From Candidatus Levyibacteriota bacterium (GTDB lineage Bacteria; Patescibacteriota; Microgenomatia; Levybacterales; UBA12049), in contig JACROF010000012.1 in NCBI GenBank assembly GCA_016214555.1, positions 70,066-134,065 on the forward strand: a stretch of 64,000 nt of DNA, given 5' to 3'. This document shows, one piece after another, positions 23,757 to 58,227 of this stretch. The position numbers and the translations under genes are program-made. A model generated the notes under the pieces. It saw only the letters and a list, made by a program, of their open reading frames with translations. It ran no database searches and was not told the origin of the DNA. The stretch's first letter is position 1; every line of letters starts with the position of its first letter.

Positions 23757-24143
23757 CTATACGGACTTACTGGTGAAAAATAGTTCAAGAGTTAAGAGAA
23801 TGCCAACAAGAAGAATAATAAAGAGTGGATGAGTAAGGTGGAGTACACGAAACAAAAGATAGCAAAGAAGAAAAAGAGCAAAAAATATGCCATGCTTTTT
23901 GCTCTTTAGAAAATATGTTGGAAGAGAATAGCCAGCGATAAGAAGTGGAAGAGGCACTATCCAAAGTGCAGGAATTGAAAAAAAGAAAAAAGTAATCTTG
24001 TCATAAGGCGAGATGGTTATCAGAAAGAAAATGAGCAGGAGAAGAAAGATAATTCCAACAATGAGGTAAAAAATATTTCTTTTTCTCCTTCTCATAGTTG
24101 AAGCATAGAGCTTTTTTCTTACCCACGCAACGCCTCTTGACAA
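23757..24143 (-). CDS. small membrane protein, unknown function
   Basis: 128 aa, 3-4 hydrophobic helices, divergent from hrcA. No motif. Confidence 0.4.
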   Translation of the reverse strand: MSRGVAWVRKKLYASTMRRRKRNIFYLIVGIIFLLLLIFFLITISPYDKITFFFFSIPALWIVPLPLLIAGYSLPTYFLKSKKHGIFFALFLLCYLLFRVLHLTHPLFIILLVGILLTLELFFTSKSV

Positions 24144-24165
24144 AAAATAGCACTCTTGGTATTAT
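24136..24165 (+). promoter_or_regulatory. sigma70-type promoter of hrcA operon (TTGACA -18- TATTAT)
   Basis: ttgaca at 24136-24141 and tattat at 24160-24165. The -10 lies inside the CIRCE spacer, the classic arrangement for HrcA-repressed promoters. Confidence 0.45.
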
Positions 24166-24173
24166 AGTGCTAA
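24147..24173. promoter_or_regulatory. CIRCE inverted-repeat operator (HrcA binding site)
   Basis: aTAGCACTC-ttggtatta-TAGTGCTAA versus consensus TTAGCACTC-N9-GAGTGCTAA: 9-bp arms, 9-nt spacer, one mismatch per arm. Located 10 nt upstream of hrcA. Confidence 0.65.
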
Positions 24174-24182
24174 TTCAAGATT

Positions 24183-24917
24183 ATGCATAACTTGACTCAG
24201 AGACAGATTGAGATTCTCAAAGCAATTATTGAGGATTATATCGAGACAGCAGAGCCAGTTGGTTCTGAGACCCTTGAAAAGAAATACAGCCTAAGTGCTT
24301 CTCCTGCAACGATTCGAAACGAGATGGTTAGACTTTCTGAATTTGGATATCTCAAAAAACCGCATTCGTCAGCAGGACGTGTCCCAACGCCTGAAGGAAT
24401 GAAGTTTTATGTCTCACAGCTCATGAGAGAGAAAGTGCTTTCGACAGTTGAGGAGGTAGCTCTAAAGGAGAAGGTTTGGGACTATCGCGAGAGAATGCAG
24501 CGTTTCCTTAAGGAAGCAACACGATCTCTTGCTGACAAAACAGGTGCTTTAGCTGTGGCAACTTCCCAAGATGGCGATGTCTTTATTTCGGGATATTCAA
24601 ATATTTTGGAGATGCCTGAATTTTTTGACATTGACATTACGAAGACTCTTCTTTCAGCTATTGATGAGTCAGAATATTTATTTAACCTTTGTCAGAAAAT
24701 GACCCAGGAAGGTGATGAGATCAATATACTGATGGGAGAGGATTTAGGTTCACGACTTCAGGGCCCTTATAGTTTTGTTTATACTCATTATGAGACTCCT
24801 ATGCATGGCGCAGGAGAGATTGGAGTAATTGGGCCGGTTCGCTTGAATTATACAGTCGTTGTGCCTACAGTGAGGTATTTTGGAGATCTTATTGAATCAA
24901 TTGCAAAAGGTTGGTAA
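24183..24917 (+). CDS. hrcA: heat-inducible transcription repressor HrcA (short form)
   Basis: 244 aa. N-terminal winged-helix with ILKAIIEDYIETAEPVGSETL...SPATIRNEM, typical of HrcA. CIRCE element upstream. Confidence 0.85.
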   Translation: MHNLTQRQIEILKAIIEDYIETAEPVGSETLEKKYSLSASPATIRNEMVRLSEFGYLKKPHSSAGRVPTPEGMKFYVSQLMREKVLSTVEEVALKEKVWDYRERMQRFLKEATRSLADKTGALAVATSQDGDVFISGYSNILEMPEFFDIDITKTLLSAIDESEYLFNLCQKMTQEGDEINILMGEDLGSRLQGPYSFVYTHYETPMHGAGEIGVIGPVRLNYTVVVPTVRYFGDLIESIAKGW

Positions 24918-24922
24918 AAATT

Positions 24923-25402
24923 ATGTCAGATGGAAAAAGAAATAAGAAACAAGAACAGACAGTTGTAGACAAGTCAGAAGAAGTTGAAGTGATTGAAGGT
25001 CATGCCTTAGAGTGGGAGAATAAGTACAAAAGAGTGCTTGCTGACTATCAGAACCTTGAAAAAAGAGTACGAGATGAAAGATTGGAATTAGTACGATCTT
25101 CAAATAAGGAATTGCTCTTGAAATTTTTGCCTATTTTAGATACAGTATTATTAGCAAAGCAGCACGAGCAAAATCAAAATCTTACAATTATTGAGGATCA
25201 GTTCTTTAGTATTCTCAAACTGGAAGGAGTGATAAAAATTGCTACGGTCGGAGAGCATTTCGACCCCTCAACAATGGAAGTTGTTACATTAACGCAGGGA
25301 CAAGAAGGAATTGTTATACAGGAGGTACGCCCAGGCTATCTGCTATATGATAAATTGCTGCGTCCAGCACAAGTTATAGTAGGCAACGAGGACAAAAAAT
25401 AA
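24923..25402 (+). CDS. grpE: nucleotide exchange factor GrpE
   Basis: Coiled-coil N-terminal region then a C-terminal beta domain. Sits between hrcA and dnaK. ATG at 24923 preferred over the TTG at 24911. Confidence 0.85.
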   Translation: MSDGKRNKKQEQTVVDKSEEVEVIEGHALEWENKYKRVLADYQNLEKRVRDERLELVRSSNKELLLKFLPILDTVLLAKQHEQNQNLTIIEDQFFSILKLEGVIKIATVGEHFDPSTMEVVTLTQGQEGIVIQEVRPGYLLYDKLLRPAQVIVGNEDKK

Positions 25403-25484
25403 AAGTTTAAAGTGTAAAGATAAAAATTAAGATGTATGTTTTTAACTTTTCATTTTTAACTTTTTCTGAGATAGAAAGGAATAT

Positions 25485-27386
25485 ATGGGAAAAATAATTG
25501 GAATTGATTTAGGTACAACAAATTCATGCGTAGCGGTTATGGAAGGTGGCTCACCAAAGGTGATCCATTCTGCGGAAGGCCGCAATGTCATCCCTTCTGT
25601 TGTTGATCCCAAAGCACATGTTGTTGGTGATATCGCAAAGCGTCAAATGGTTTTGAAGCCAAAAGAAACAATTTTTTCTGTCAAGAGATTGATGGGAAAG
25701 AAGTTCAAAGACTCCTCTGTTGCAAATGATATGAAATGGCTTCCATATGCCGTAAAAGCCGGAAGAGATGATATGGCTGTTGTTGAAGTCGATGGTAAAT
25801 CTTATACTCCGCAGGAGATTTCAGCAATGATTTTACAGAAAATAAAATCAGATGCAGAAGCATACCTTGGAGATAAGGTAACTGAGGCAGTTATTACTGT
25901 ACCTGCTTATTTTGACGATAGTCAGCGCCAGGCTACAAAGCAGGCAGGAGAGATTGCTGGTCTTGAGGTAAAACGCATTATCAACGAGCCAACAGCAGCA
26001 GCGCTCGCATATGGATTAGATAAGAAAAATGCACATACTATTGCGGTCTACGATCTAGGTGGAGGAACATTTGATATTTCTATTTTGGAGCTTGGGGATG
26101 GTGTCTATGAGGTAAAATCAACTAATGGAGACACTCATCTTGGAGGAGATGATTTTGATCAGGTAATTATTACTTATTTGGCCGAGGAATTCAAAAAAGA
26201 AAATGCTATCGATTTGAAAAAAGACCCCCAGGCACTTCAGAGATTGAAGGAATCAGCCGAAAAAGCAAAAATAGAACTTTCATCTGCTCAGGAGGCGCAG
26301 ATCAATCAGCCATTTATCACTCAAGGACCAAATGGCCCTCTTCATTTGACGATGACTCTTACAAGAGCAAAGCTTGAGCAGCTCGTCGATGATCTTGTTC
26401 AAAAGACGCTTAAACCCGTTGAGCAGGCAATTAAAGATGCGGGTATAAAAAAGAATGAAGTTGACGAGGTTGTTATGGTTGGTGGAATGACTCGCATGCC
26501 GAAAATTGTCGAAACAGTCTCAAAATTCTTTGAAAAAGAACCAAATAAATCAGTAAATCCTGATGAAGTAGTAGCAATTGGTGCTGCTGTACAGGGAGGC
26601 GTTCTTTCAGGAGATGTTAAGGATGTGCTCCTTCTTGATGTAACTCCTTTGACGCTTGGCATTGAGACAATGGGCTCAGTTTCAACCCCTCTTATAGCAA
26701 GAAATACCACCATTCCTACATCAAAATCTCAAGTATTTTCAACCGCTGCAGATAATCAGACACAGGTAGAGATTAACGTTTTGCAAGGAGAGCGACCTAT
26801 GGCCGCAGACAATAAGTCACTTGGTCGATTTATTCTGGATGGTATTCCTCCAGCTCCTCGTGGTATGCCACAAGTTGAGGTAACATTTGATATTGATGCA
26901 AATGGCATTTTGAATGTCAAAGCTAAAGATAAAGCTACTGGAAAAGAGCAAAGTATTAAGATTACCGGTTCAACTGGGCTTTCAAAAGAGGAAGTTGAGA
27001 GAATGACTAAAGAGGCTGAGCTTCATGCTAAAGAGGATGAAGAGAAGAAAGCGCAGGTTGAAACAAGAAATCAGGCAGACTCTCTTATTTTTACCGCCGA
27101 AAAATCTCTCAAGGATGCAGGGGATAAAGTAAGCGATGATATTAAAAAAGAAGTAGAAGAAAAGATAAAAGCACTTAAAGACATCTTGGATAGTGGATCA
27201 AAGGAGGAACTTGAGACAAAGACTAAAGAGCTTTCAGATCATCTTCAAAAAATTGGTGAAGCTATGTATAAGGATCAAGTTGCATCCACTGAAGCAAATT
27301 CACCAGTGGCAAGCTCAGAGGAGAAGAAAGATGCAAAGGATAGTAATGAGCCTGTTGAAGGTGAGGTAGTCGATGGCCGAAACTAA
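25485..27386 (+). CDS. dnaK: molecular chaperone DnaK (Hsp70)
   Basis: 633 aa. [22 protein letters not shown] and VGGMTRMP Hsp70 signatures. Acidic C-terminal tail. Confidence 0.95.
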
Positions 27387-27810
27387 ACCAGAATTTGTCC
27401 AAGCTCCCTTTCGTATTGTTGAACCTCCCTCAATTGAGGATCCACTCCCTACTGCTGTTCCACCATCTGCTGATATTTTAGCGGGTAGGGTTTTTAGTTC
27501 AGAAGATCAGGCACGATTGACAGAGTTAGAAGAAAAAGTTGAAAGATTATCAAATCAAGGTCAGCCAACAATTGATATTCAGAACGAGATTGCTAGAATA
27601 CGTGGTATAGAGATGCCTTCCATAAAAAGAAAAGAGGGGCCGTTTTTAGAGGATATTATGTCCAGAGAACAAATCGAAGAAAATTTGAGAAATAACCTTC
27701 CTGCTAGTTTTAGCCCACCCCATATAAGAACTGGTCAAGAGGCTAGAGGAGATAGGAGTCCGACATGGAGAGGTCCAAGGCAAAGAGCTGTTTCAAAAAG
27801 AACAAAGTAA
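27373..27810 (+). CDS. hypothetical protein encoded between dnaK and dnaJ (likely disordered, Pro/Arg/Glu-rich)
   Basis: 145 aa ORF filling a 440-nt dnaK-dnaJ gap and overlapping the dnaK stop by 14 nt. No recognisable domain. Compositionally biased. Confidence 0.4.
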
Positions 27811-27826
27811 TATTGCATGAATTACT

Positions 27827-28705
27827 ATGGCACAAGATTATTATTCATTATTAGGAGTTTCTAAATCTTCAAGTGCAGATGAGATTAAAAAAGCCTATCG
27901 TAAATTAGCGCTTCAGTACCACCCCGATCGTAATAAGACTAAAGAGGGGGAGGAAAAATTTAAGGAAATAACCAAAGCCTACGAAGTCCTTTCAGACCCG
28001 CAAAAAAGACAGACCTACGATCAGTACGGATCAGCAGCTTTTGAACAGGGAGGGCCAGGGGCAGGAGGCCCGTTTGGTGGAGGTTTTGGTGGATTTAATC
28101 AGCAAGGTCCTTTTAGTTATACATATTCCAGCAATGGTCAAGGATTTGATTTTGGGGGATTCTCAGATCCATTTGAAATATTTGAACAATTTTTTGGTGG
28201 TGCATCGCCTTTTGGAAGAGGAGAAAGAAGGCAGGTTTATTCTTTGTCGATTAGCTTTATGGAGGCTGTGAAGGGCGCTGAGAAAGAAGTAGAGATAGAC
28301 AAGAAAAAACAAAAAATAAAGATTCCTCCAGGTGTTGATACGGGAACAAGAATGAGGTTTGAAGGTTTTGATATTGTATTTGAAGTAAAGCAAGATAAAA
28401 GATTTCATCGTGAAGGCTCAGATATTATCACTGAGGAAACAATATCTTTTCCTCAAGCAGTTCTTGGTAGCGAGATAAAGGTTGAAACAGTTGAAGGAGA
28501 GGTTACCATCAAGATTCCAGCGGGAACACAGCCTGAGACATTGATACGACTTCGAGAAAAAGGAATCCAAAGACTCCGAAGTTCAAGCAAGGGTGATCAT
28601 TATGTGCGAATTAAGATAGATATCCCTAAAAACATTTCAAAAAAGCAGAGAGAAATTCTTGAGGCTTTTGATTCGGATTCGCAAAATAAAAAGAACTGGT
28701 TTTAG
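27827..28705 (+). CDS. dnaJ: DnaJ-like co-chaperone, type II (J domain + G/F-rich region + C-terminal substrate-binding domains, no zinc finger)
   Basis: 292 aa. J domain with HPD ([13 protein letters not shown]). Gly/Phe-rich linker. No CxxCxGxG repeats. C-terminal DnaJ_C-like region. Confidence 0.8.
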
Positions 28706-28796
28706 CGCATTTTCTGCACAAAGATTTATTTGTAATTTCTATACCAAATTCGTATACTTGAAATACGTGGCGCCTTAGAATTGGTGCTTTATTTCT

Positions 28797-29180
28797 ATGA
28801 AAATTGTCTCTGCTCGACAATGGATTCAAAAATTATCTTATTCGTTATTTTTTGTGGATGTTGCGTATGCTGCCGATCCAGCTTCCTCTTGTGATTCTTC
28901 AGCTGTTATGACACAGCTTGGGTGTCTACCGAAAGATCCTGTACTCTTTGTTAGTAGTTTTTATGGTATTGGACTGAGTATGGTTGGTGGAGTAGCTCTT
29001 CTCTTTATCATTATTGGAGGTTACACAATTCTTACTTCTCGAGGGAATCCAAGTCAAATTAACGCAGGAAAAAGTTATATTTTTTACTCGATTGCTGGCC
29101 TTATTCTTGCAATATTTGGCTATCTCTTTATAGAGATATTTTTGGTTGATCTTCTTCATATACCTGGTCTTGGACACTAA
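28797..29180 (+). CDS. small secreted two-TM protein, VirB2/TrbC pilin-like (hypothesis)
   Basis: 127 aa. Signal peptide ending AYA-ADP. Mature ~100 aa with two hydrophobic helices separated by a short polar loop (TSRGNPSQINAGKS). Size and topology resemble TrbC/VirB2 T-pilin subunits. Stop is 2 nt before the next gene. Confidence 0.5.
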   Translation: MKIVSARQWIQKLSYSLFFVDVAYAADPASSCDSSAVMTQLGCLPKDPVLFVSSFYGIGLSMVGGVALLFIIIGGYTILTSRGNPSQINAGKSYIFYSIAGLILAIFGYLFIEIFLVDLLHIPGLGH

Positions 29181-29181
29181 A

Positions 29182-32100
29182 ATGAAAAAATATTTTTTGT
29201 TCTGCCTTCTTTTTATCGTAGGACTTTTTTTATTTACCACCTCTCAGCAAGCGTATGCTGTTTCGATAGATAGCAAAACTCTTATTGCGGCAGATGCATT
29301 ACCCCAGGATGGATCGTGGATTATTGATCCTGAGGTGACTAGAATCGGCAAAAACGCATCACGATCAGGGCAGTTATTGGATTGGACACTCAAGGATTAC
29401 CAATGGTCAACTGCAGCATCGCAGCAAAGTAGCGATAATCCTCTTGCATCATTTTGGATCATTATTCAGAGAATTGTTTATGCCTTGTTTTTAGTTGTAA
29501 TTCTTATAACGTCATTTATTCTCATTGTAACTAGAGGGAAAAGTCTGTCTGCTAAAAGATTTCTTCCGAGGTTTTTACTCGCAGTAATTCTTGTGACTTT
29601 TTCTTTTTCACTTATTCAATTTATTTATCAATTTGTTGATATTTTACAAGGATTTTTTCTTAACAATTCTCGTGGGCAAATTATTTCATCAAAAGATCTT
29701 TTATTTATAGGCTTTCAGTACACAGACTTTGAAGGACTTCGTCGATTCGGTTCGTCATTTGACGAGTCTGCATTTATGTCGTTGATCCTTGTTAAATTTA
29801 CTGCATTTACTTATTATGTTATGGCTCTTCTCCTTATTTTTAGAAAGATTCTTCTTTGGTTTTTTATAGTTCTCTCTCCCCTTTTCCCAATACTGCTCTT
29901 GTTCTATCCAATGAGGAATACGGGAAAGGTTTGGATCGGTGAGTTTTTTAGATGGGTACTTTACGCACCTCTTTTTGCTATTTTCTTATCGGGCCTTGTA
30001 AGATTGTGGGATTCTCCTTCAGGACTTCCTCTCCTTTTTAATTTTACTGGAGTAAAGCAGGGGGATATGGTATATCCGACTGCGGTAAATATTTTACTTG
30101 GTGGACCTGGGCAAAAAATCGGATTGAACAATAGCGTTAATCTTCCTGATACATTTGCACTTTATGTAGTGTCTCTTATCATGTTGTGGGCAGTTATTAT
30201 TCTGCCATTTATTCTTCTCCAGATTTTTTTAGATCACATGATGGCGTATAATTATCAAAATAATCCTATAACAAAACAAATTACTAATCTTATGGCTTCA
30301 AGGCTTGCGCCGCCCTCAAAGCCACTTGGTCCTCCTCCATCTTCTAATCAACCAGCAGGTCTTGCAAGAAATATTCCCTTTGGTAGGCATTTTGAGGTTC
30401 CATCGTCTGTTGGTGATGCTAAGGAGATTCCAAGAAGTTTTGCACAGCAAAATAAGTCTCAGACAGTAGTGAAGAAAAATGTTGTTACAAAATCCGTAGT
30501 GAATAATCTAGCCAATCTTTCAATTCCAACGATGAGGGATATTGCCAGATATGAAATAGAGAAAAGATCTCATGACACTTCTCGAATTGCAGAAATTGAA
30601 AGAACGAAAAAAACTCTTATTCAGATAGCAAGTCCGACAACTCTTTCTATTTCTAGTGAGCGAGAAAGATATCAGGCTATCAGGGAAAGGTTAAGACTTG
30701 CTTCTCAGAAAGGTGATACTGTTGCCACAAATATACTCCAGGCTGCAAATACATATAATTACTATTCTTCGCAAGACACTTCTTCGACCACGATTAATCA
30801 AGGAGTTAAAAATCTTGCTAATCCAGAGAGAATCCTTTCTACAGTGGAAAAAGAAAAAGTCGAAAAAATAAAAGAGAGAATTATTCAGAATGCTCTTGAG
30901 GGTAACCCTATTGCTAAACAAGTTGCTGCAGGCCTAAGTCAGTTCTCCTCAAGCCAACTTGCAGTTCTCAAACAAATACTTCAGGCATTATCGTCATCAG
31001 CTCTAAATCAGAACTCTTCTAATCAATATGAGTCGCTTCGCGAGCGTCTCGTAACCGCAAGCAATTCTGGGAATACAGTTGCAACTACGTTTATTTCTAC
31101 AATTGAAAAGTCATCTTCTGAGCAAGATGTTAAGAGTTTATTTGAGGCGTTAATTAAAGCTGAAAAAGAAGGAAATCCAATAGCAAAAGAGGTTATGAGC
31201 TCTGTTGATAAAAATGTCTCACAGGTATCCACAGAGAATTTAAAGCAGGTGATTAAAGAAGCTAAAGATAAAAAAGATCCATTAGGGGTAATGATTTTTG
31301 AGATGATGCAAGAATCATCAGTCAAAGAACAAAAAGTTCCCGCCTCAGCGGCAACGAAATTAAAAAGCGGCACTTTTCCTGTTGTTAATAGGATTCAAGA
31401 AGTATCTTTTGATGATTACGAAGCTGTGAAGAAAATGTGGAGGGAAAATTATAAAAATTTGAAGTCTGCTGGATTTAATGGTGATAGTAGAAGAGATGAG
31501 ATCAATAATGATATTTCACATATGCAAGAAACGATTAGCTTACTTTCTTCAGGGAATCAAGAGATGATCGAACAAGGAATGAGACAGGTATCTGATATTC
31601 TGCCATTTCTATTAATTGGAGGATTCTCTCAGACTGAAATTATTACCTATCTTAAGGCAAAATTGGAGGCTGCAAAGTCTACACTTGAAGACTTAACAGC
31701 GAAAGACGATGAAGAAGACACGCTTCTTGCTGCTGAAAAAGCTGTTAAGCACACCTCAAAAACTATGACGATGAGTGCTGAGGCGCCTATTTCTGCAAAG
31801 CAGGTTATTCCTCAAGAGGTTTCAACGGGGTCTGTGCATACGACTCTACTGTCTCCTCCTTTGGCTAGTGGGGCAACATCAATTTTTAATATAGTCAACC
31901 TCCCAATAGTTACCTTGCGAGATATTGTAAGAATTGACCAGAAAAGAGAGACAACAACAGACCAGAAGAGTGAAATCACTATTCTTAAGCAAAATCTTCT
32001 CAATATTGGACATCCTGAGAGGGTAACTTCAGTAGACGAGCGTGAAAAATATAAAACATTGCACACTCAGCTGGTTGAGGAGGATAAGAAAGGAAATCCT

Positions 32101-33150
32101 TCAGCAAAGATTATTATCAATGCAATTAGTGAGCTTGACAACCAAACGTCTGATAGCGAAATTGATAACGCAAATAAGTTTATTTCACTTCTTGGGCAGC
32201 AAATGATTCCAGGTGATAAAAATGAGGATAGGGAAAATGAGATTTCACAATTGATTTTGAGAGAAAGTGCTTCAAATCCTCTAGCTGAATCTCTTCGTGT
32301 GGCTTCACAGCAGTGGTATAACCTTCAGAAAGAAAAAACTAAAGATTTTCTTGAGAAAATTAGCAATCCTTCTCTCCTACCAACAGCCGCTGAGCAGATG
32401 CAGTATACGAAGCTAATGGATAGGATTTCTTTGGCAAGCTCAAACGGAAACAGCGTTGCATCATATGTAGTTAAAGCAATCCGTGAAAAAGATATAGATC
32501 ACGAAATACCTCAAATATATGTAAAAATTGCTGAAGGAGAAAGGAATGGAGATGAGCTTTCAACATATCTCATGAGAACTATCTATAACACAGCCTCACA
32601 TGATACTAAGATAGACGCTGAGTCTATTTTCCAAAAGACAGTATCACAGGGGAGAGATGGCGATCTCTTTGCTTCAAAACTCTTAAAAGAGATTGCAAAA
32701 ATCGCCAAACAATTAGGTAAAAAGACAACGCCTGTCACCTCTTTGCCTCATGCAAATCGAATACAGACTGTTACTCTTGATGATTATGAAGAGGTAAAAA
32801 GAATGTGGGAGGAGAATTATGCATCATTTCTTCTAGATTCTTCAAAATCTTCTGATGAGAAAAAGAGAATAATAGAAAAGGATGTTAATTCATTAACTCT
32901 AGCCATAAACTTGCTTTCATCAACTGATTCTGAGCAGATGAGAAGAGGAATGGATATGGTAAGCGATTTGTTGCCTTTTCTTCTCTTGGGAGGATTTAGT
33001 CAGCCTGAAATTATCGGGTATCTAAAGGCAAAACGTACTGCTGCAGAGTCTGTTTTTAAAAGTGAAAATAGCTTGAATGAGGAATTGGTTAGTAGAAATA
33101 AAAGACAGGAAAATCCAATACAACAGAAAGTTCAAGTCGTCGATGAATGA
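29182..33150 (+). CDS. giant (1322 aa) secreted polytopic membrane protein: N-terminal VirB6/TrbL-like multi-TM domain plus long modular repeat-containing hydrophilic C-terminal region
   Basis: ATG at 29182 (the track's 29146 is TTG). Signal peptide MKKYFLFCLLFIVGLFLFTTSQQAYA, then ~6 TM helices within the first ~370 aa. About 950 aa of hydrophilic sequence follow, with several repeated module types (see repeat features). Confidence 0.8.
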   Translation: MKKYFLFCLLFIVGLFLFTTSQQAYAVSIDSKTLIAADALPQDGSWIIDPEVTRIGKNASRSGQLLDWTLKDYQWSTAASQQSSDNPLASFWIIIQRIVYALFLVVILITSFILIVTRGKSLSAKRFLPRFLLAVILVTFSFSLIQFIYQFVDILQGFFLNNSRGQIISSKDLLFIGFQYTDFEGLRRFGSSFDESAFMSLILVKFTAFTYYVMALLLIFRKILLWFFIVLSPLFPILLLFYPMRNTGKVWIGEFFRWVLYAPLFAIFLSGLVRLWDSPSGLPLLFNFTGVKQGDMVYPTAVNILLGGPGQKIGLNNSVNLPDTFALYVVSLIMLWAVIILPFILLQIFLDHMMAYNYQNNPITKQITNLMASRLAPPSKPLGPPPSSNQPAGLARNIPFGRHFEVPSSVGDAKEIPRSFAQQNKSQTVVKKNVVTKSVVNNLANLSIPTMRDIARYEIEKRSHDTSRIAEIERTKKTLIQIASPTTLSISSERERYQAIRERLRLASQKGDTVATNILQAANTYNYYSSQDTSSTTINQGVKNLANPERILSTVEKEKVEKIKERIIQNALEGNPIAKQVAAGLSQFSSSQLAVLKQILQALSSSALNQNSSNQYESLRERLVTASNSGNTVATTFISTIEKSSSEQDVKSLFEALIKAEKEGNPIAKEVMSSVDKNVSQVSTENLKQVIKEAKDKKDPLGVMIFEMMQESSVKEQKVPASAATKLKSGTFPVVNRIQEVSFDDYEAVKKMWRENYKNLKSAGFNGDSRRDEINNDISHMQETISLLSSGNQEMIEQGMRQVSDILPFLLIGGFSQTEIITYLKAKLEAAKSTLEDLTAKDDEEDTLLAAEKAVKHTSKTMTMSAEAPISAKQVIPQEVSTGSVHTTLLSPPLASGATSIFNIVNLPIVTLRDIVRIDQKRETTTDQKSEITILKQNLLNIGHPERVTSVDEREKYKTLHTQLVEEDKKGNPSAKIIINAISELDNQTSDSEIDNANKFISLLGQQMIPGDKNEDRENEISQLILRESASNPLAESLRVASQQWYNLQKEKTKDFLEKISNPSLLPTAAEQMQYTKLMDRISLASSNGNSVASYVVKAIREKDIDHEIPQIYVKIAEGERNGDELSTYLMRTIYNTASHDTKIDAESIFQKTVSQGRDGDLFASKLLKEIAKIAKQLGKKTTPVTSLPHANRIQTVTLDDYEEVKRMWEENYASFLLDSSKSSDEKKRIIEKDVNSLTLAINLLSSTDSEQMRRGMDMVSDLLPFLLLGGFSQPEIIGYLKAKRTAAESVFKSENSLNEELVSRNKRQENPIQQKVQVVDE
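31381..31695 (+). repeat. intragenic ~105-aa repeat module copy A (RIQEVSFDDYEAVKKMW...LPFLLIGGFSQTEIITYLKAKLEAAKS)
   Basis: Protein-level duplication within the 1322-aa ORF. Copy A is ~40-45% identical to copy B, including DDYE.VK.MW.ENY, LPFLL.GGFSQ.EII.YLKAK and AA.S. Nucleotide level is diverged. Confidence 0.6.
32745..33070 (+). repeat. intragenic ~105-aa repeat module copy B (RIQTVTLDDYEEVKRMW...LPFLLLGGFSQPEIIGYLKAKRTAAES)
   Basis: Paralogous to copy A at 31381-31695. Conserved hydrophobic patch LPFLLxGGFSQ and basic YLKAK motif. Confidence 0.6.
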
Positions 33151-33193: not shown

Positions 33194-35866
33194 ATGCTTG
33201 GAAATTTATTTAGTTCTCATAAAGATCCTAAAGAGGAGTTGGTCTCGCCTCAAGAGCAAAATCCAGCAGATACAAGTACTGCTGCTAATACATTGACACA
33301 CATAGAGTCACGAATGGATCCAACGCTTAGGCAAAATGTCTCAGCGCTATCCCATCTTGATTCTCGTACTACGCAAGTTCTTCATCACGCTCAAGAAGAG
33401 ACAAGGCGCATTAAGCAAGCTCAAATACAGCCTGAACAAGTATTGCTAGGACTACTATACGATGAGGAAGTTTTTAAGCTACTTGAAGGTTTTGATGTTG
33501 ATGTTGCAAAGCTTGCCCAGGAAATTCAGAGTAAAGAAGAAGTAGGAAGTTTCCAAGAGCAGCCGATGTTGAGTAGCGCAAGTACTCAGCTATTTGAGCA
33601 GGCATATAGAGACGCAAAAACCAGAAACGCCAGCTTTGTTTCACCAGAGGATCTTTTGGTTGAGATTTGCAATTTATCTATTGATTCCGTAAAGCTCCTA
33701 GTGGAAAAGGGAGTTACTAAACAACATATTTTGGACAAATTATCGTCGTCTACAGAATACACCACGGGTAAAAAATCAGTTCTTGAACAATTCGCCATAG
33801 ATCTCACTGCTGAAGCAAAAGCAGGGAAATTGGATCCAATCGCAGGAAGAGATAGGGAAATTGACAGACTTGTTCACATTTTACTTCGAAGGACAAAAAA
33901 CAACCCAATAATTATTGGTGAAGCTGGAGTCGGTAAAACAGCGATTGTTGAAGGACTTGCACAGGAAATTGTTGCAGGAAGTATACCATCTGACCTTAAA
34001 AACAAAAAAATTTATCAGCTTGATCTTGCATCGCTTGTAGCTGGCGCTAGCCATAGAGGAGAGTTTGAGGAGCGACTAAAAGGGATAATCAATGAAACAA
34101 TTGCGTCACAAGGTCAAATAATCCTTTTTATTGATGAAATACATACCCTCATTGGGGCAGGTGACACTGACGGCGCTTTGGATGCTTCAAACATAATAAA
34201 GCCCCATTTAGCAAGAGGTCATATGCAGATTATTGGAACAACTACCACAGTTGAGTATAGAAAGCATTTTGAGAAAGATAAGGCTTTCGAGCGACGTTTT
34301 CAACCAATCCTTGCTGATGAACCATCTGAAGAGGCTGCTGTTGAAATGCTGAAAGTGTTAAGGCCAAAATATGAGAAATATCATGGTGTGACAATCCCTG
34401 ATGATACTTTGGTAGATGCCGTTAAGTTATCAAAAAAATATATTGGAGAAAGATATCTTCCTGATAAAGCAGTTGATCTTATCGATGAAGCTTCAGCAGA
34501 TGTAAAGCTTGGACGAATTTCTTTTAAGCAGGATGTAAAGGAATCGGGAGAAAACTCAAATGACACACCGCCTCGTTCACAGGCAACAACGGGTAATGAG
34601 GTGGTAAAGTCAGATATTGAGAGAGTTGTGAGCAATTGGACTGGTATTCCAGTTACAAAATTGACTGAAGACGAGAGTCAGAAGCTTCTTAAGCTTGAGG
34701 ATAATATTCATAAAAGACTTATCGACCAGCAAGAAGCAGTCGTTGCGGTATCTGAGGCTGTACGGAGAGGGAGAATTGGGTTAGCTCCGGCAAATAGGCC
34801 AATTGCATCATTTATATTTCTCGGTCCAACAGGCGTTGGCAAAACAGAATTAGCAAAAACGCTTGCCGAGTTACTTTTTGGGCGTGATGATGCTCTTGTG
34901 AGGCTTGATATGAGTGAATATATGGAAAAGCATGAGGTAGCTAAGTTGATTGGGGCTCCTCCAGGATACGTTGGTTATGAAGAAGGAGGTCAGTTGACAG
35001 AGGCGGTTCGGGCAAAGCCATACTCAATAGTTCTACTTGATGAGGTAGAAAAAGCACATCCTGATGTTTTTAATATTCTTTTACAGCTTTTGGAAGATGG
35101 TCGATTAACAGACAATAAAGGTAATACTATTTCGTTCAAAAATACTATTGTTATAGCTACCTCCAATATTGGAAGTTCGCTTATTCAGCAACAGCTTAGT
35201 GAAAAAGGAGAGCCACAATCGCAGGAAGCTTTTACTAAAGAGTTTAGTGATTTGACAACGCTTGTAACAGCAGAGTTAAGAAAGTTTTTTAAGCCAGAAC
35301 TTCTTAACCGATTTGATGACGTGGTGATGTTTAAGCCTTTGAGAAAAGCAGATATGACGCAGATTGCAAAGCTTGGTATCGGAAAAACAGCAAAATTGCT
35401 TGAAGAGCAGGGGTATCATGTTCAGACAACGGATGCTGCGATTGCGCAGCTTGCGCAGGAAGGATACGATCCTGTATATGGAGCAAGGCCGCTTAGAAGG
35501 CTTATCCAGTCATCTATCGAAAATCGAGTAGCTCTTATGATCATAGGGAAGGAATTTATGCCTGGAGATACTATTGTGATTGATTATAACTCGACAAAAG
35601 GAGGTTTTAATTTCTCAAAAGGCGGTGGTCAGAGTGTAGTTGGTCCAGAAAAAAACATCGATAATCGAGACAATAATACTCAACCTCTTGATATGGTTGA
35701 AAAATCTCATCTTCCTGAGTCAGGAACAGGGGAAGCTCAGGCGTTACCTAAGGAGCCTGAGTACGCGCAGCCCAGCTTCAATCCTCCATTCTTGAGTAAT
35801 CAAAATAACAACGTCAATGGTGAGACTTTTGTAAAGAACGAAATCACTTCTGCCTCAAGCAATTAA
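33194..35866 (+). CDS. Hsp100/Clp-family double-AAA+ ATPase (ClpC/ClpA-like architecture, no ClpB M-domain, no recognisable ClpP-docking IGF/IGL loop), Q/N-rich C-terminal tail
   Basis: 890 aa. Two Clp_N repeats. NBD1 Walker A GEAGVGKT and Walker B ILFIDEIH. Only ~45 aa between NBD1 and NBD2. NBD2 Walker A GPTGVGKT, Walker [11 protein letters not shown], sensor ATSNIG and GARPLRR. No G-F/G-L tripeptide after the sensor-1 region. Confidence 0.85.
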
Positions 35867-35937
35867 TAAATACCCTCTAAGGCTGTAAAAGATGCTGGTT
35901 TGAACTTTATTTTATATTCAAGGTATACTAAGTATGT

Positions 35938-36267
35938 ATGTCTGCCCTGTTTTTCTACCCATTTTACGTATTGAGATTTTGGTATGGTGAAGGTCCTGTT
36001 GTTGTACTCAAGCATTTCTATATTTTTAATCGTGTATTTCTTGATTTTTTTTCTGTAAAAATTCTTCTAAAAACCTTTTTTCTTCCTGTAAAAAATGAAT
36101 ATCGCGATGGTTTGGTCGGATTTTCCATTGGAATTGGGATTTTTATGAAAAGCTGTTTACTTATCATTGCAGCATTTTTATTTATGATACTTCTTGTTTT
36201 TGAAGTGGTGATTTTTGGAGGATATATGGCATTTCCTTTGATTACAGTAGGATTGTTGTTGTGGTAA
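35938..36267 (+). CDS. small polytopic membrane protein, unknown function
   Basis: 109 aa, 3 hydrophobic helices. Stop overlaps the start of the following membrane-anchored Clp-like gene, suggesting translational coupling. Confidence 0.4.
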   Translation: MSALFFYPFYVLRFWYGEGPVVVLKHFYIFNRVFLDFFSVKILLKTFFLPVKNEYRDGLVGFSIGIGIFMKSCLLIIAAFLFMILLVFEVVIFGGYMAFPLITVGLLLW

Positions 36268-36269
36268 TT

Positions 36270-38669
36270 ATGGATAGACAACTCGTATCAATATATTTGT
36301 TTTATAGAAGTATAGAAGTAAAATTTATAAGAGTTGCTCTTCCAGTGATTCTTCTGATGTGGATTCCCCTTGTGCTTATTACTAACGAATCCCCTAATGT
36401 TCCCATTGTTATTTTTAATCTTTATCTTATGGGAGAACTTTTTTATCGGTATAAGATTTGTACATTAAGAACAAAAAATACCCTTCTGGATCAGGAAGAT
36501 CCTTATAAGAGTATGTCTTTAGAGGTAGCTTCAGTATTTCAAAATGCTTCATCAACAAAGGAAATATTAAGACGCTTGTTTAGTCATCAACAGGTCATTT
36601 TTGGGTTACAAAGAATGGGTGCTTCTCCGCGAGATGTAGTGAGTATTGAATACGAAGCCAACGTGTTGCTGCTAAGAGCGTCTGAGCTCGCTAAAAAAAT
36701 ACAGGGAACAAAGATTACTCTTATAGATGTGCTCAATTCTTATCTGATTGTCTCAGATGAGAAGACAAATTTCCTTTTACATAAGCGATTAAAAGAGAAT
36801 GACTTGCTGCAGATTTCTGTCTGGGTTAGGAAGATCTATCAATTTGAGGAAAAACCAAGGGAGCTATTTTTTGCAAATTACGGAGGAGGATTGGGGCAAT
36901 GGCTTGTGTCTGGGTGGACCTTGGAAACTAAAAAGTATACACAAGTTTTTCCTCAGAAGGATCTTAATCTTGATGTTTCTATTATTGGCAGAGAAAAAGA
37001 ATATCAGTTATTACAAGAAAGCTTATTAAAACCTGAAAGAAATAATATTCTAATTGTTGGAAAAACAGGGGTAGGCAAAGAGCAGCTGCTTAGAAGGCTG
37101 GCAGAGGATAGTTTTAGTGGAAAACTTGATAAGAATCTTTCATATAAAACAATTCTTGAAGTACTCGTTGGATCACTTGTCGCTGGAGCAAATCAACAAG
37201 GCGATCTTCAGGAGCGTTTAAAAGAAATCATTGAGGAGGTTAGCCATGCAGGCAATGTTATTCTTTATATTCCTGAATTCCAGAACCTTCTTGGCGGGAC
37301 CAGCTTTTCACTTGATCTTTCTGGGGCATTAATGCCATTCCTTCGTGATGGAAAGCTTCCGATTATCGCAAGTGTCACTGACGAAAATTTTAAAAGATAT
37401 ATACAAGGTAAACCTATCTCTGAAATGTTTTCTGATATTCATCTTACGGCTCCCAGTAGTAATCAGGCTGAGCAGATGATAATGGAAAAGATCGTGGAGC
37501 TTGAAAGAAAACATGCAGTAATAATTACTTATCCTGCTGTCAAGACATCGGTGATGTTTGCACAAAAATATTCTGATAGTTCTGAGTTACCAGGAAGTGC
37601 AATTGATCTACTGTCTGATGCAATGAGTAAAAAAGCTTCTGAAGATATTCATGATGCACATAATAAGTTTCGTTTAGTTACTGAGAAAGATATTATTCAT
37701 ACAGTTGAACAGCGAACAAGTATTGCGTTGGATGATCCAACAGAAGAAGAGAGTTCAAGGCTACTTCATCTAGAATCTATTATGCATGAGCGGATCATAG
37801 GTCAAGATCAGGCTATTAAAGCTATTGCAGAATCTCTTCGAAGACTCAGAACAGGGGTTCAGAGTCTAGATAGACCTACCTCCTTTTTGTTCCTGGGCCC
37901 AACAGGTGTTGGTAAAACTGAAGTAGCAAAAGTATTATCAAATATTTATTTTAATGGTGAAGCGAATATGATCCGTCTTGACATGAGCGAGTATGCATCA
38001 ACCGATGGTATTGAGAGATTAATAGGAGCATCTACCAGACAAAACGATCTGAGAGGTGAGTTGACTGAGAAAATCCATGATCATCCAAATTCCCTTGTCC
38101 TTCTTGACGAATTTGAGAAAGCTCATTCGTCGGTGGCAAATCTCTTCCTTCAGATTCTTGATGATGGTAGATTGACCGATGGGAGAGGTAATACTGTTTC
38201 TTTCAGTAACGCGATTATTATCGCAACATCGAATGCTGGAGCAAATTTTATTCACGATGCGATAGAAAAAAATGTATTTCTTGATAGCTCGTTTCAGAAG
38301 CAATTGAGAAGCTTTCTTCAGGCAAATAATATATTCAAGCCAGAATTACTCAACCGCTTTGATGATATTGTTGTTTTTCGGCCACTCTTAAAGGATGATG
38401 TTAGGAAAGTAACAGAAATTTTGTTAAGAGATCTTATAAGTCACATGAAAGAAAAAGACATAACACTCTCCGTTGAGGATATTGCAGTGTCTAAAATAAT
38501 ATCAGAAGGTTATGATAAAGAATATGGAGCAAGACCAATTCGGAGATATATCCAAGACAATCTTGATGATCTTATTGCGAAAGAAATCCTTAATAAATCA
38601 ATTAATAGAGGAGATAGGGTAAGAATTGGCGTCAATCAAATAAATGAGTTTGTTATTTATCGAATTTAG
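36270..38669 (+). CDS. membrane-anchored Hsp100/Clp-like ATPase with degenerate (catalytically dead) first AAA+ domain and intact second AAA+ domain
   Basis: ATG at 36270 (GTG at 36261 in the track). Two N-terminal TM helices, then a Clp_N-like repeat pair. NBD1 Walker A reads VGKTGVGKEQL (canonical T/S replaced by E), Walker B reads ILYIPEF (D replaced by P), and the Arg finger is lost. NBD2 is canonical ([36 protein letters not shown]). Confidence 0.8.
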   Translation: MDRQLVSIYLFYRSIEVKFIRVALPVILLMWIPLVLITNESPNVPIVIFNLYLMGELFYRYKICTLRTKNTLLDQEDPYKSMSLEVASVFQNASSTKEILRRLFSHQQVIFGLQRMGASPRDVVSIEYEANVLLLRASELAKKIQGTKITLIDVLNSYLIVSDEKTNFLLHKRLKENDLLQISVWVRKIYQFEEKPRELFFANYGGGLGQWLVSGWTLETKKYTQVFPQKDLNLDVSIIGREKEYQLLQESLLKPERNNILIVGKTGVGKEQLLRRLAEDSFSGKLDKNLSYKTILEVLVGSLVAGANQQGDLQERLKEIIEEVSHAGNVILYIPEFQNLLGGTSFSLDLSGALMPFLRDGKLPIIASVTDENFKRYIQGKPISEMFSDIHLTAPSSNQAEQMIMEKIVELERKHAVIITYPAVKTSVMFAQKYSDSSELPGSAIDLLSDAMSKKASEDIHDAHNKFRLVTEKDIIHTVEQRTSIALDDPTEEESSRLLHLESIMHERIIGQDQAIKAIAESLRRLRTGVQSLDRPTSFLFLGPTGVGKTEVAKVLSNIYFNGEANMIRLDMSEYASTDGIERLIGASTRQNDLRGELTEKIHDHPNSLVLLDEFEKAHSSVANLFLQILDDGRLTDGRGNTVSFSNAIIIATSNAGANFIHDAIEKNVFLDSSFQKQLRSFLQANNIFKPELLNRFDDIVVFRPLLKDDVRKVTEILLRDLISHMKEKDITLSVEDIAVSKIISEGYDKEYGARPIRRYIQDNLDDLIAKEILNKSINRGDRVRIGVNQINEFVIYRI

Positions 38670-55190: not shown

Positions 55191-55925
55191 TTATTCATCG
55201 TTTGGGTGAATTATTTTTGACTTAATAATGAGTCTTTTCCATGTCGTTCCTGGAGGAGTACACGTAACAAGAGTTAAATAATTATTATCATACTGTTGGT
55301 CAAAAAAAGAAGTATCAGTAGGAGTTGTGATTGTAAGATTGTAAATCTTATAATGATAGTCCATATTGTTTACTTTTATGATAATTTCGTCTCCAATCTC
55401 CAACGCATGAGCGTTGGCAAATATTGTTTTGTAATCTCCTTCTTTATAGAATTGAGGTAGAGTTGAGTGACCAAATATTACAGCAGTGCCTTTACTTGGA
55501 GGAACGGCGGTGCCCCCATACTGAACTAAGTGTGTTGATAGGTCATTATCAATGGTAGATACCATTGCGTTAACGATGTGAATTTTTGGAATTGAAATCG
55601 CATAACTGGTAACAGCTGCATCGGTATGTGATGTTTTAATAGAGGGGTACCAGTTTTGTGCGTTTGTGTAATCAATTCCTTTTATAGAATCTGTAGTAGC
55701 TTGAAGCAGAGATTGAAATGATGAGTCGGTTAAGATTGTGTATTTTGGAACAGGCGCTGCTATTTTTTGTGATGCAAAAACAGGCTGGAGATAAATTTGA
55801 AAAAGAATGAGAGGAATAGAAAAATAAATTGCAAATGCTAATCCGACTATACACAAAGTAAGCCCTACAAATCGTAGTAGTTTTCGCAGTAAAAGGGGAT
55901 TTTTTTTCCTATAAATTTTAGTCAT
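55191..55925 (-). CDS. sortase-family transpeptidase
   Basis: 244 aa. N-terminal TM anchor. Conserved His (AVIFGHSTLP), the LTLVTCTP active-site motif (TLxTC), and a downstream Arg. Confidence 0.7.
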   Translation of the reverse strand: MTKIYRKKNPLLLRKLLRFVGLTLCIVGLAFAIYFSIPLILFQIYLQPVFASQKIAAPVPKYTILTDSSFQSLLQATTDSIKGIDYTNAQNWYPSIKTSHTDAAVTSYAISIPKIHIVNAMVSTIDNDLSTHLVQYGGTAVPPSKGTAVIFGHSTLPQFYKEGDYKTIFANAHALEIGDEIIIKVNNMDYHYKIYNLTITTPTDTSFFDQQYDNNYLTLVTCTPPGTTWKRLIIKSKIIHPNDE

Positions 55926-58227
55926 TCGCTTGAGGAGTTATTGTAATATTTTGAGATATTCTCGGAAGAAGTTTTGGTAAGAGAGGTATATTGGGTGATA
56001 GGATAATTTCAGCAGATTCAACCTGAGGAATATCAGATAGATAATTTTCAGCGTTGCTAAATGATTTACCGGCAAGATCTTTTTGAATAGTATTTATATC
56101 AATTTTTGGAAGTAGGCCTGCTTTAATAATTAGTTTTCCTTCGACTTCAGTTGATGAAGTTTTTTTAATGTTTTCCAGTGATGCAGAAATGCCTTTTTCA
56201 GAAATGGCAAGATCTTCTGAGTATCTTCCTTTCAAGGTTGATTCTGCAAGCTTATTTAGGTCATCTTTTGAATACGAGAGAGAGGTGAAAGTAACTGTTC
56301 CTTTGAGGGTAACTTTTTTTGCTTCATCATCTACGTCGTGATCGTATGACTTTTTAGAAATGGTTGTTGCAGTAAAGAAAGGAAGTAGGTCATGATCGTT
56401 TGAAAGTTTTTTTGTGATAGTTTCTGTCGCTTTTTCTTGAAGGGATTTTATAAGATTGGCATCAAGTGAATCAAGATCTTTTTTTGCAACAACGGTGATT
56501 TCTTTTTTAGTACCTCCCGAAAAGGCTGAGTCATTCTTTGCCGCAAGCGTACTTGAAAGTGCGAGTGTGAATTTTGTTCCTGATGGAAGATTAGATGATG
56601 TACCTATCTCTTTTGCCGTAACATTTACTTGAACTGTTCCTGGTTTTGTACCAGAAAATACGTCGCCTGACTGAGATGCAATTGATACTTCTTTATCTGT
56701 TGTGTAAGTAAGATTATTTGATGAAGTAATAACGGTTCCAGCTGGTACCGTTTTTTTATTATCTGAATTGTTGTAAAGCGTTACTGTACCTTTTGCCTTT
56801 TCTCCTACATCTTTCTTTCCTGTTGCATCAGTAGAAACTGATCCATCAAGAGAAGTTTGAACTTCTTCTGCAGAAAGTATTTTTTGTGAGAGATCATTAG
56901 TAGAATCAGTTTGTAATGTTACTTCAGTTGATTCATCAATTCCTCTTGTTTTCATATGGAGAATAACAGTGGCCTTTAATGAGAAGATATAAAGAAGAAT
57001 TACTCCAATAAGTATGATCAGAGCTATTGGGATAAATATCATTTTTTTTCTAAACTGTAGAGAAGGATTTCTAAAAAAAGAAATTTTTTGGATTTTTTCT
57101 AAAAGACTGAATAAAAATAGCATTTTGCTAGTTGAGGGAGTATGGGAAGATGATAGTGATTTCGCTTCATGAGTTTTGCCATGGGGTAAAAAATTGTCCC
57201 CTATAAGAGGCGTATTCTCCGATGGAGTGTTAATATTTCTTTCTACAGTTTGAGGCCTGACTTGTGATATGTCTTGTCCTACAACAAATCCAAAATCATT
57301 GTCCTCATTTTTTATTACGGAAGTTGATGTATCGTCGATATCTTTTTCTCTATCATCCTTAGGATTTTTATCTTCTTCTATGTTTTCTTTCTCTTCTGAT
57401 CTCTTTAGTTTTTTTGATGATGTTTCTTCTTCTCCCTCAAGGGTAATTGGTTTAATATCATTGAACGCATCTAATACTGAGTAATTCATTTGCTCTGCAG
57501 TTCCGTAGACCATTGACTTTGCGTCAAATCCTTCGGGAAGAACGGATATTTGTGGCACATGCAAAAAAGGGATGCTTTTACTCCAATGGTGTGCTATAAA
57601 ATCCTGTGCTAATTCCTCTGCACTTCCGCCATTAAAAACAATAATTCTTGATGGAAGTACATCAGTTGTAAAATGATGGAGAAGTTTGTCTACTGTCAAA
57701 GGTATTGAGTCCTCGATTCGAGAAGTGTGGATCTCAAGAATGTTTCCTGCACGAAAAAGAGTGAGTGTAGCTTGTTGTTTGCCTATTTCCGCTAAGATTG
57801 CAGACAGGGGAGCTCCCTCTTCTTTTGTGAGAAGGTGAGCAATTGCCTCGCTGGTGATCATAAATCCGATAGGTCGAAGCGATAGTGAGTCTGAAAGTTT
57901 TTTAAGGTTTGATAAATATTCTTTTTTAATCTTTTTTTCATCGACCCAACTTTCCTTAACTCCAAATACAGTTTTTTCGGTCTCAACATTTGGTGGTAGA
58001 TTTTCCTCAGCTTTACTGATGGTTTTATCAAGAGTTTCAAGAAGTTCTTCAAATGGTGTGTCCTCAAGATTTCTTGGAAAAGTAGTAGATGCTGTTCCGA
58101 TATATTTTAATTTTCCATCGACTTCTTCTAAGACAACAGCAACAGCTTTTTCATCTCTTAAGAGAAGAGAGAGGATATAATTTGATGTCTCCTTTTTTTG
58201 AAAGATTGAAGGAATTGGCAGCTTCAT
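55918..58227 (-). CDS. large bitopic membrane protein: N-terminal cytoplasmic domain (possibly actin-like FtsA/PilM fold), one TM, C-terminal Ser/Thr-rich extracytoplasmic domain
   Basis: 769 aa. Single TM (IFIPIALIILIGVILLYIF) near residue 400. The N-terminal 270 aa is globular. The C-terminal 350 aa is S/T/K-rich and repetitive. No LPXTG motif. Overlaps the sortase gene start by 8 nt. Confidence 0.6.
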   Translation of the reverse strand: MKLPIPSIFQKKETSNYILSLLLRDEKAVAVVLEEVDGKLKYIGTASTTFPRNLEDTPFEELLETLDKTISKAEENLPPNVETEKTVFGVKESWVDEKKIKKEYLSNLKKLSDSLSLRPIGFMITSEAIAHLLTKEEGAPLSAILAEIGKQQATLTLFRAGNILEIHTSRIEDSIPLTVDKLLHHFTTDVLPSRIIVFNGGSAEELAQDFIAHHWSKSIPFLHVPQISVLPEGFDAKSMVYGTAEQMNYSVLDAFNDIKPITLEGEEETSSKKLKRSEEKENIEEDKNPKDDREKDIDDTSTSVIKNEDNDFGFVVGQDISQVRPQTVERNINTPSENTPLIGDNFLPHGKTHEAKSLSSSHTPSTSKMLFLFSLLEKIQKISFFRNPSLQFRKKMIFIPIALIILIGVILLYIFSLKATVILHMKTRGIDESTEVTLQTDSTNDLSQKILSAEEVQTSLDGSVSTDATGKKDVGEKAKGTVTLYNNSDNKKTVPAGTVITSSNNLTYTTDKEVSIASQSGDVFSGTKPGTVQVNVTAKEIGTSSNLPSGTKFTLALSSTLAAKNDSAFSGGTKKEITVVAKKDLDSLDANLIKSLQEKATETITKKLSNDHDLLPFFTATTISKKSYDHDVDDEAKKVTLKGTVTFTSLSYSKDDLNKLAESTLKGRYSEDLAISEKGISASLENIKKTSSTEVEGKLIIKAGLLPKIDINTIQKDLAGKSFSNAENYLSDIPQVESAEIILSPNIPLLPKLLPRISQNITITPQAND

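Follow-up and report, generated by a model that had tools for sequence, protein, structure and literature searches.

A single-copy VirB2-like pilin-family gene coupled to an extended VirB6-type gene inside the chaperone cluster of Levybacteria

Within the stretch of contig JACROF010000012.1 from a Candidatus Levyibacteriota bacterium that was analysed here (64 kb; the window), a gene for a small membrane protein of 127 amino acids (aa) lies directly ahead of a giant VirB6-type gene. The open reading frame (ORF) of the small protein, at 28797-29180 on the plus strand, was confirmed in position and length exactly as a preliminary description of this DNA had given it. The product is 100% identical to HZC02_03690 of NCBI, from a 299,555-bp contig of a Candidatus Levybacteria metagenome-assembled genome (MAG), and a protein search returned 181 homologues at E<=1e-3. 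Both genes belong to one co-directional run with the order hrcA, grpE, dnaK, orf145, dnaJ, the pilin-family gene, the VirB6-type gene, clpB, a gene for a 109-aa membrane protein and a divergent second ClpB-like gene (Table 1). The window is ordinary chromosome, with genes for aminoacyl-tRNA synthetases, murB, nusA, infB, pnp, ftsK and rpoB; neither tRNA genes nor Rfam elements were found in it. For comparative analyses, one genome per GTDB species was scanned, which gave 117 relatives, of which 80 were kept and analysed; the small protein is retained in at least 80 Levybacteria species.

Table 1. Features of the pilin-VirB6 pair and of the chaperone cluster around it (window positions). A1, alignment A1; pLDDT, predicted local distance difference test; T4SS, type IV secretion system; TM, transmembrane.
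Feature	Position	Strand	Basis or remarks
CIRCE (HrcA operator)	24147..24173	+	Two mismatches to consensus, 0 expected by chance; only CIRCE in window
hrcA, grpE, dnaK, orf145, dnaJ	24183..28705	+	ORFs; synteny with precomputed Pfam labels in loci L001 and L004; conserved in 80 species
Weak hairpin (6 bp, 2 G-U) and T-tract	28769..28788	+	8 nt before pilin ATG
VirB2-like (PF18895 T4SS_pilin family) small membrane protein, 127 aa	28797..29180	+	ATG start, ORF call
Putative weak Sec signal peptide, aa 1-25, AYA↓A	28797..28871	+	Clade-specific; layout read from sequence
Cys32...Cys43 pair around beta-hairpin, predicted extracytoplasmic N-tail	28890..28925	+	A1 and model
Hydrophobic helix 1, aa 48-80	28938..29036	+	AlphaFold2, pLDDT 85-96; Kyte-Doolittle segment aa 55-73
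Short basic loop SRGNPSQINAGKS, aa 81-93	29037..29075	+	S81, G83, G91, K92 invariant; predicted cytoplasmic (positive-inside rule)
Hydrophobic helix 2, aa 85-120	29049..29156	+	AlphaFold2; Kyte-Doolittle segment aa 99-117
Conserved C-terminal motif D-x-L-x-(I/V)-P-G-(F/L)	29148..29171	+	0-2 residues before C-terminus
Extended VirB6-family protein, 1322 aa	29182..33150	+	ATG 29182 (MKKYFLF...), own signal peptide
VirB6-fold membrane domain, signal peptide and 5-6 TM helices, aa 1-375	29182..30306	+	
C-terminal hydrophilic module copy 1, aa 442-835	30505..31686	+	BLASTP of two halves
C-terminal hydrophilic module copy 2, aa 903-1292	31888..33057	+	BLASTP of two halves
clpB, 109-aa membrane protein, divergent second Hsp100/ClpB-like gene	33194..38669	+	Pfam, NCBIfam, conserved order

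Kyte-Doolittle windows revealed two segments of TM grade in the small protein, and an AlphaFold2 model based on the 32 orthologues (mean pLDDT of 80.2) placed them in two helices, with a four-residue turn, SRGN, between them, which bears out the proposal of two hydrophobic helices with a short polar loop. Ahead of the helices the model has a small beta-hairpin at 36-45 (strands 36-39 and 42-45). Of the two cysteines around it, Cys43 is invariant and Cys32 is present in at least 90% of the sequences of alignment A1, and the two may form a disulfide. At the other end of the protein, D118, L120, P123 and G124 of the C-terminal motif are invariant in A1, and the motif itself is present in all 81 species-level loci. 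R81 and K92, the sole basic residues in the core, both lie in the loop, and the tails are acidic; by the positive-inside rule this points to a topology with both termini outside and the basic loop in the cytoplasm. No TraF-like peptidase was seen among the genes of the window, and a search of its six frames with the family hidden Markov model revealed no pilin paralogue.

In Pfam, the window copy matched PF18895 ("Type IV secretion system pilin") at E 2e-5 with 25.0 bits, over profile positions 16-63 of 71, a match that satisfies the criteria of PMC12102498 (i-E<0.001, coverage >50%). The same family was matched by all 32 orthologues at E<=0.1 (best 6e-8) and by 115 of the 117 wider relatives (best E 1.1e-47). 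Among these relatives, 82 also matched NF045849 of NCBIfam, a pilin-like conjugal transfer protein (best E 2.7e-39), and nine matched PF04956, TrbC/VirB2 (best E 1.5e-14). For the window copy the NF045849 match was weak (E 0.0036, 17 bits, cut-off 40). The orthologue profile matched 27,237 cluster representatives at E<=1e-3, and no unrelated family of Pfam or NCBIfam scored better for the window copy. By sequence, then, the small protein falls within the PF18895 clade of T4SS pilin-like proteins, an assignment that is solid at the family level. The VirB2/TrbC-type pilin architecture put forward in the preliminary description is supported by these matches; the profile named there for checking it, PF04956, was reached by a few relatives and not by the window copy, and it is PF18895 that spans the orthologues.

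More distant comparisons gave little. An hhalign comparison of alignment A1 with Agrobacterium VirB2 did not rise above reversed-sequence controls, and Foldseek found nothing in the PDB at E<0.9 for the hairpin model; the Aeropyrum pernix conjugation pilus (8dfu) at rank 6, with 24% identity over 68 columns and E 1.7, is a non-significant hint. For a helical hairpin such a fold search carries no information, as it cannot discriminate hairpins. A PDB sequence search with the orthologue profile returned only spurious matches to TM helices of the beta-2 adrenergic receptor, at E about 0.01.

Other members of the family are built differently. Among its 149 best representatives (P0187-P0335), 121 have one pilin domain; in 106 of these it stands at the very C-terminal end, preceded by a signal peptide and by a variable extracellular stretch with a median length of 152 aa. 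A further feature, seen in 28 of the 149, is the presence of 3-8 tandem pilin domains per polypeptide. About 12 of the Levybacteria species (L014, L016, L018, L019, L022-L024, L029, L033, L054, L060 and L073) encode, on the minus strand upstream of hrcA and divergent from it, a protein of 190-480 aa with a C-terminal PF18895-type domain. The same slot in the window (23757-24143, minus strand) is taken by a multi-TM protein of 128 aa for which no family was detected.

A cleavable AxA signal peptide had also been ascribed to the small protein. The window copy has the layout of one, with n-, h- and c-regions in the order MKIVSARQWIQK-LSYSLFFVDV-AYA↓A, and cleavage would be expected at this site. 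The signal is weak: the h-region is short and contains Asp, and its best 9-residue hydropathy is 1.84, whereas sister species whose signal peptides are obvious reach 2.8-3.3. As the n-region motif MK(K)xxAR recurs across the sister clade in the alignment, the N-terminal extension of the window protein is probably translated. As a family feature the signal peptide did not stand. In 67 of 81 species-level loci the open frame ahead of the first conserved Cys is shorter than 18 codons, so that most orthologues cannot have a cleavable signal peptide, and a signal-peptide-like N-terminus was seen in only about 7-9 of the 81; the annotated start is preceded by 14 open codons in L001 and by 3 in L004. 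The conserved unit is therefore a short N-tail with Cys-x(10)-Cys, a helix, the basic loop, a second helix and the PGF end.

The stop codon of the small gene (TAA, 29178-29180) is separated by 1 nt from the ATG that is the most likely start of the giant gene; the distance had earlier been put at 2 nt. Spacers of 1-16 nt were found in about 70 of 80 species, and this tight arrangement supports the suggested co-translation of the two proteins. The giant begins with a signal peptide, and 5-6 hydrophobic helices follow within aa 87-355; this polytopic domain has the VirB6 fold. The window giant did not match PF04610 (TrbL/VirB6) at E<=0.1; 21 of 34 giant orthologues, at 44-68% identity, did (best 5.1e-7), and its close homologues carry precomputed PF04610/PF19590 labels. 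A PDB sequence search with the profile of the VirB6 N-domain detected no VirB6 by sequence. The C-terminal ~880 aa, two thirds of the giant, are a tandem duplication of a ~400-aa module (30% identity over 403 columns, E 7e-39, BLASTP). Searches of Pfam and NCBIfam with the whole giant and with its C-terminal modules gave no family. Orthologues of the giant are between 509 and 2154 aa long, a spread that suggests 1 to 4 module copies, and the module region is about 30% identical between species vs. 56% for the N-domain. These properties fit the "extended VirB6" class, defined in PMC12857230 by at least five TM helices together with large hydrophilic domains.

In every one of the 80 species-level loci with enough flank, the pilin-family gene is followed directly by the VirB6-type gene, and the pair lies inside the cluster hrcA-grpE-dnaK-(dnaJ)-pair-clpB. 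One subclade has the order hrcA-grpE-dnaK-pair-clpB-dnaJ, from which we conclude that the pair belongs within the cluster and is more than a neighbour of it. Median identity across species is 59% for the pilin core and 56% for the VirB6 N-domain, and 60% and 49%, respectively, for DnaJ and GrpE. The pair is thus strongly conserved by purifying selection, with the pilin core on a par with DnaJ and the VirB6 N-domain close behind.

The CIRCE in front of hrcA overlaps an 11/12 sigma-70-like promoter match (24137-24165) detected in the promoter scan. It is found at the same position in L001 and L004, and CIRCE-like sites stand at hrcA in 39 of 64 loci; in none of the 64 loci scanned was such a site present before the pilin gene. 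The hairpin between dnaJ and the pilin gene may act as a partial terminator or attenuator that separates the pair from dnaJ. Hairpins occur at the same place, ~50-63 nt past the dnaJ stop, in loci L006-L010, which together with the window makes six related species; their stem sequences are different yet complementary, and it is this retention of position with differing stems that suggests such a role. Most other species are without the hairpin and have only 36-90 nt from the upstream stop to the first Cys codon.

Among the neighbouring genes, the one for the 109-aa membrane protein (35938-36267) overlaps or abuts the divergent ClpB-like gene (36261-38669), and both follow clpB in most of the 80 Levybacteria loci. 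The divergent gene scores 427 bits to ClpB, vs. a cut-off of 1232, and its product has no Clp_N domain. The 145-aa ORF between dnaK and dnaJ (27373-27810) overlaps the end of dnaK by 14 nt and is found only in the closest relatives, L006 and L009. Pfam and NCBIfam gave no families for orf145, the 109-aa protein, orf384 or the 128-aa protein upstream of hrcA. Farther away, at 55191-58227 on the minus strand, a sortase gene stands right beside the gene of a 768-aa protein that contains a Baseplate_J-like domain (E 3.5e-9), a strange combination for a housekeeping region. Many of the loci compared (L006, L009-L012, L014 and others) are titled "uncultured Gammaproteobacteria bacterium"; they share the Levybacteria gene order, with pilin genes 50-82% identical, and the titles look like placeholder or wrong taxonomy.

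We propose, with a probability of about 0.78, that the small protein is a VirB2-like membrane subunit that is made with, and docks on, the extended VirB6 platform of a Patescibacterial T4SS-like machine. It would span the cytoplasmic membrane so that the short basic loop is inside and the two ends are outside, an insertion that the weak Sec signal peptide probably aids in the window clade, and it would be made together with the extended VirB6 by translational coupling across the 1-nt spacer. In the R388 model, VirB6 is an inner-membrane platform that collects VirB2 subunits from the membrane. By this analogy the small protein is most likely a VirB6-docked subunit of a T4SS-like envelope machine, in physical contact with its partner, and a short pilus or conduit may arise by its polymerisation. 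The Levybacteria pair is fixed inside the HrcA/CIRCE-controlled chaperone cluster instead of beside virB4; it might be co-regulated with the heat-shock genes, and it might depend on VirB4.

Several observations weigh against this proposal. Genes for VirB4, VirD4, VirB3, VirB8 and a relaxase were all missing from the window. In one part of Table S1 of PMC12102498, VirB4 is reported present in 20 of the 44 Levybacteria assemblies listed and absent in 24, and it was detected in three of six assemblies that carry the pair; most Magasanikbacteria and Kaiserbacteria of the same source study are given there as VirB4-positive. The Levybacteria assemblies are draft MAGs, and thus the absence of VirB4 is not proven. 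The score of the window copy lies 1.6 bits under the PF18895 gathering score of 26.6, and it has no match in Pfam to PF04956 at E<=1. When a family profile of 122 sequences was compared by hhalign with an Agrobacterium-type VirB2 profile of 120 sequences, the score was 16.6 (E 0.045, probability 1.2%), and reversed-sequence controls gave 14.5 and 16.5; the sequence of A. tumefaciens VirB2 had been verified against PDB 8cue. The link to classical VirB2/TrbC is therefore transitive and contextual, not direct. In addition, the near-housekeeping conservation of the window pilin contrasts with the pilin arrays reported for the phylum, which are hypervariable, with an average identity of 25% (PMC12102498). 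No sighting of a pilus in any Patescibacterium was found in the cited papers, and "pilin" itself is a prediction.

The patchy occurrence of VirB4, the conservation of housekeeping grade and the invariant location keep alive the main rival reading, in which the pair is derived from VirB2 and VirB6 but independent of VirB4; it would form a membrane complex that stands by itself, has a near-housekeeping role and is functionally linked to the chaperones encoded next to it. It could be, e.g., a conduit or an anchor, with substrate or subunit handling powered or quality-controlled by DnaK/ClpB or by the 109-aa protein and the divergent ClpB. The position of the pair between dnaK/dnaJ and clpB in 80 species, internal to the cluster where dnaJ follows clpB, speaks for such a complex, as do the conservation equal to that of DnaJ, the VirB4 distribution given above, the single CIRCE at hrcA with none before the pilin gene, and the conserved 109-aa protein and second ClpB immediately downstream; a precedent for this kind of recruitment is offered by the type VI system, which has taken up the ClpB paralogue ClpV. 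Gene order alone, however, is no proof of function. In the small genomes of Patescibacteria, genes that have nothing to do with each other stand in long co-directional arrays, and the plus-strand run of the window reaches nusA, infB and pnp. The terminator-like hairpin between dnaJ and the pilin gene implies at least partial transcriptional separation in the window clade, the VirB4 absences come from draft MAGs, and we know of no precedent for a VirB6 channel driven by an Hsp100 protein. On balance we regard independence from VirB4 as unlikely. Somewhat more doubtful is its fuller form, that the pair is uncoupled from a VirB4-type T4SS and is a core module co-expressed with, and perhaps served by, DnaK/DnaJ, ClpB and the membrane-protein-linked divergent ClpB; if true, the uncoupled pair would be a secretion-system remnant or a new translocon in which AAA+ unfoldases replace VirB4.

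It is very improbable that the small protein is an unrelated two-TM mini-protein, such as a holin or a generic membrane hairpin, with a PF18895 score that reflects hydrophobic composition only. Such an origin would agree with the sub-threshold score of the window copy, with the adrenergic-receptor matches of the orthologue profile, which demonstrate that compositional matches occur, and with the inability of the fold search to tell hairpins apart. It is hard to reconcile with the PF18895 matches of every orthologue and of 115 of 117 relatives, down to E 1e-47, with the relatives that match TrbC/VirB2 and the Mycoplasma pilin-like family, and with an invariant partner of VirB6 fold. The gene also lies in a chromosomal housekeeping region, at a position conserved in 80 species, with dnaJ on one side, VirB6 and clpB on the other and no phage or lysis genes nearby. 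A holin-like identity, which the preliminary description had left standing, we reject on this context, as the window contains no phage genes. Patescibacteria encode type IV pili, which would speak for a type IV (T2SS/T4P-type) pilin or pseudopilin. The sequence refutes this identity, which is scarcely credible: neither the window protein nor alignment A1 has a class III signal, with its short basic leader and G↓(F/M)xxxE motif, the protein has two TM helices and not one N-terminal helix with a globular domain, and no PilB/C/M genes are found in the 64 kb. In this respect the earlier statement that the protein is not a class III signal pilin was borne out.

Many Patescibacteria encode VirB2-like pilins (PF04956/PF18895), and arrays of such genes occur above all in Microgenomatia and Saccharimonadia; their usual place is near virB4, which in Microgenomatia tends to be close to dnaA/dnaN (PMC12102498). 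The window protein is like those already described (the Southlakia epibionticum ML1 array, TM7x VirB2; PMC10633639, PMC12102498) in its Pfam family at the orthologue level, its phylum, the ~100-aa helical hairpin, the chromosomal site and the absence of a relaxase nearby. Unlike them, it is encoded by a single-copy gene outside any array, inside hrcA-dnaK-clpB and not near virB4 or dnaA; its median identity across species is 59%, vs. ~25% within the reported arrays, and most of its orthologues are without any signal peptide. With the VirB2/TrbC pilins of diderms (A. tumefaciens VirB2 8cue/8exh, R388 TrwL 8s6h, pKM101 TraM 8cw4) it shares two hydrophobic helices, a short basic loop, predicted outside termini, an adjoining VirB6 homologue and the nine relatives that match PF04956. 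It differs from them in lacking a PF04956 match of its own, in a profile-profile score equal to reversed controls, in its N-terminal Cys-Cys beta-hairpin and conserved PGF end, in the lack of a long VirB2-type leader, and in its monoderm Levybacteria host, which has no outer membrane.

The VirB4 of Patescibacteria is related to the MPF-FATA-type class, from whose systems VirB2-like pilins are stated to be absent, and they may have been co-opted from elsewhere (PMC12102498). Through 82 of 117 relatives the window protein is akin to the "Mbov_0395 family pilin-like conjugal transfer protein" (NF045849) of a Mycoplasma integrative conjugative element, which belongs to a monoderm MPF-FATA-type system; the window copy itself matches weakly and is not on an integrative conjugative element. 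The NF045849 matches among Patescibacterial relatives suggest that a monoderm (Tenericutes) relative exists. The giant, in turn, resembles extended VirB6 proteins (PF04610; R388 TrwI 7o3v, Legionella DotA) in its at least five TM helices and large C-proximal hydrophilic region, and differs from them in having no PF04610 match, no sequence-level PDB match, and a C-terminal region made of a fast-evolving tandem ~400-aa module with 30% identity and variable copy number.

To the VirB2-like pilins of Patescibacteria the window protein adds another, whose location is unusual and conserved. Four features of the locus were not found by text search in PMC12102498 and PMC10633639: a Levybacteria VirB6, recognised at the fold level, that is fused to long variable modules; the constant pairing of this VirB6 with a single, highly conserved pilin-family gene; the fixation of the pair in a heat-shock cluster; and the lack of a signal peptide in most orthologues of the pilin.

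In Southlakia epibionticum, T4SS genes including VirB6 and the pilin array are essential (PMC10633639). Of the envelope machines of Patescibacteria, few have been shown to be indispensable to an epibiotic life, and VirB2-like pilins and T4SS genes are part of that small set. VirB6 homologues are reported to be scarce in Microgenomatia, and extreme sequence divergence has been suggested (PMC12102498); the present locus gives Levybacteria, which belong to this class, a clear VirB6 homologue, identified by its fold. The identification of a VirB2-like protein is in itself ordinary for the phylum, and the notable part is the location in the chaperone cluster and the question about VirB4. With the pair fixed in that cluster and VirB4 patchy, one has to ask whether VirB4 is needed and whether the pair is heat-shock regulated. 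If VirB4 is dispensable, the pair would represent a new use of T4SS parts; if it is required, the pair would fill a gap in the T4SS parts list of Microgenomatia.

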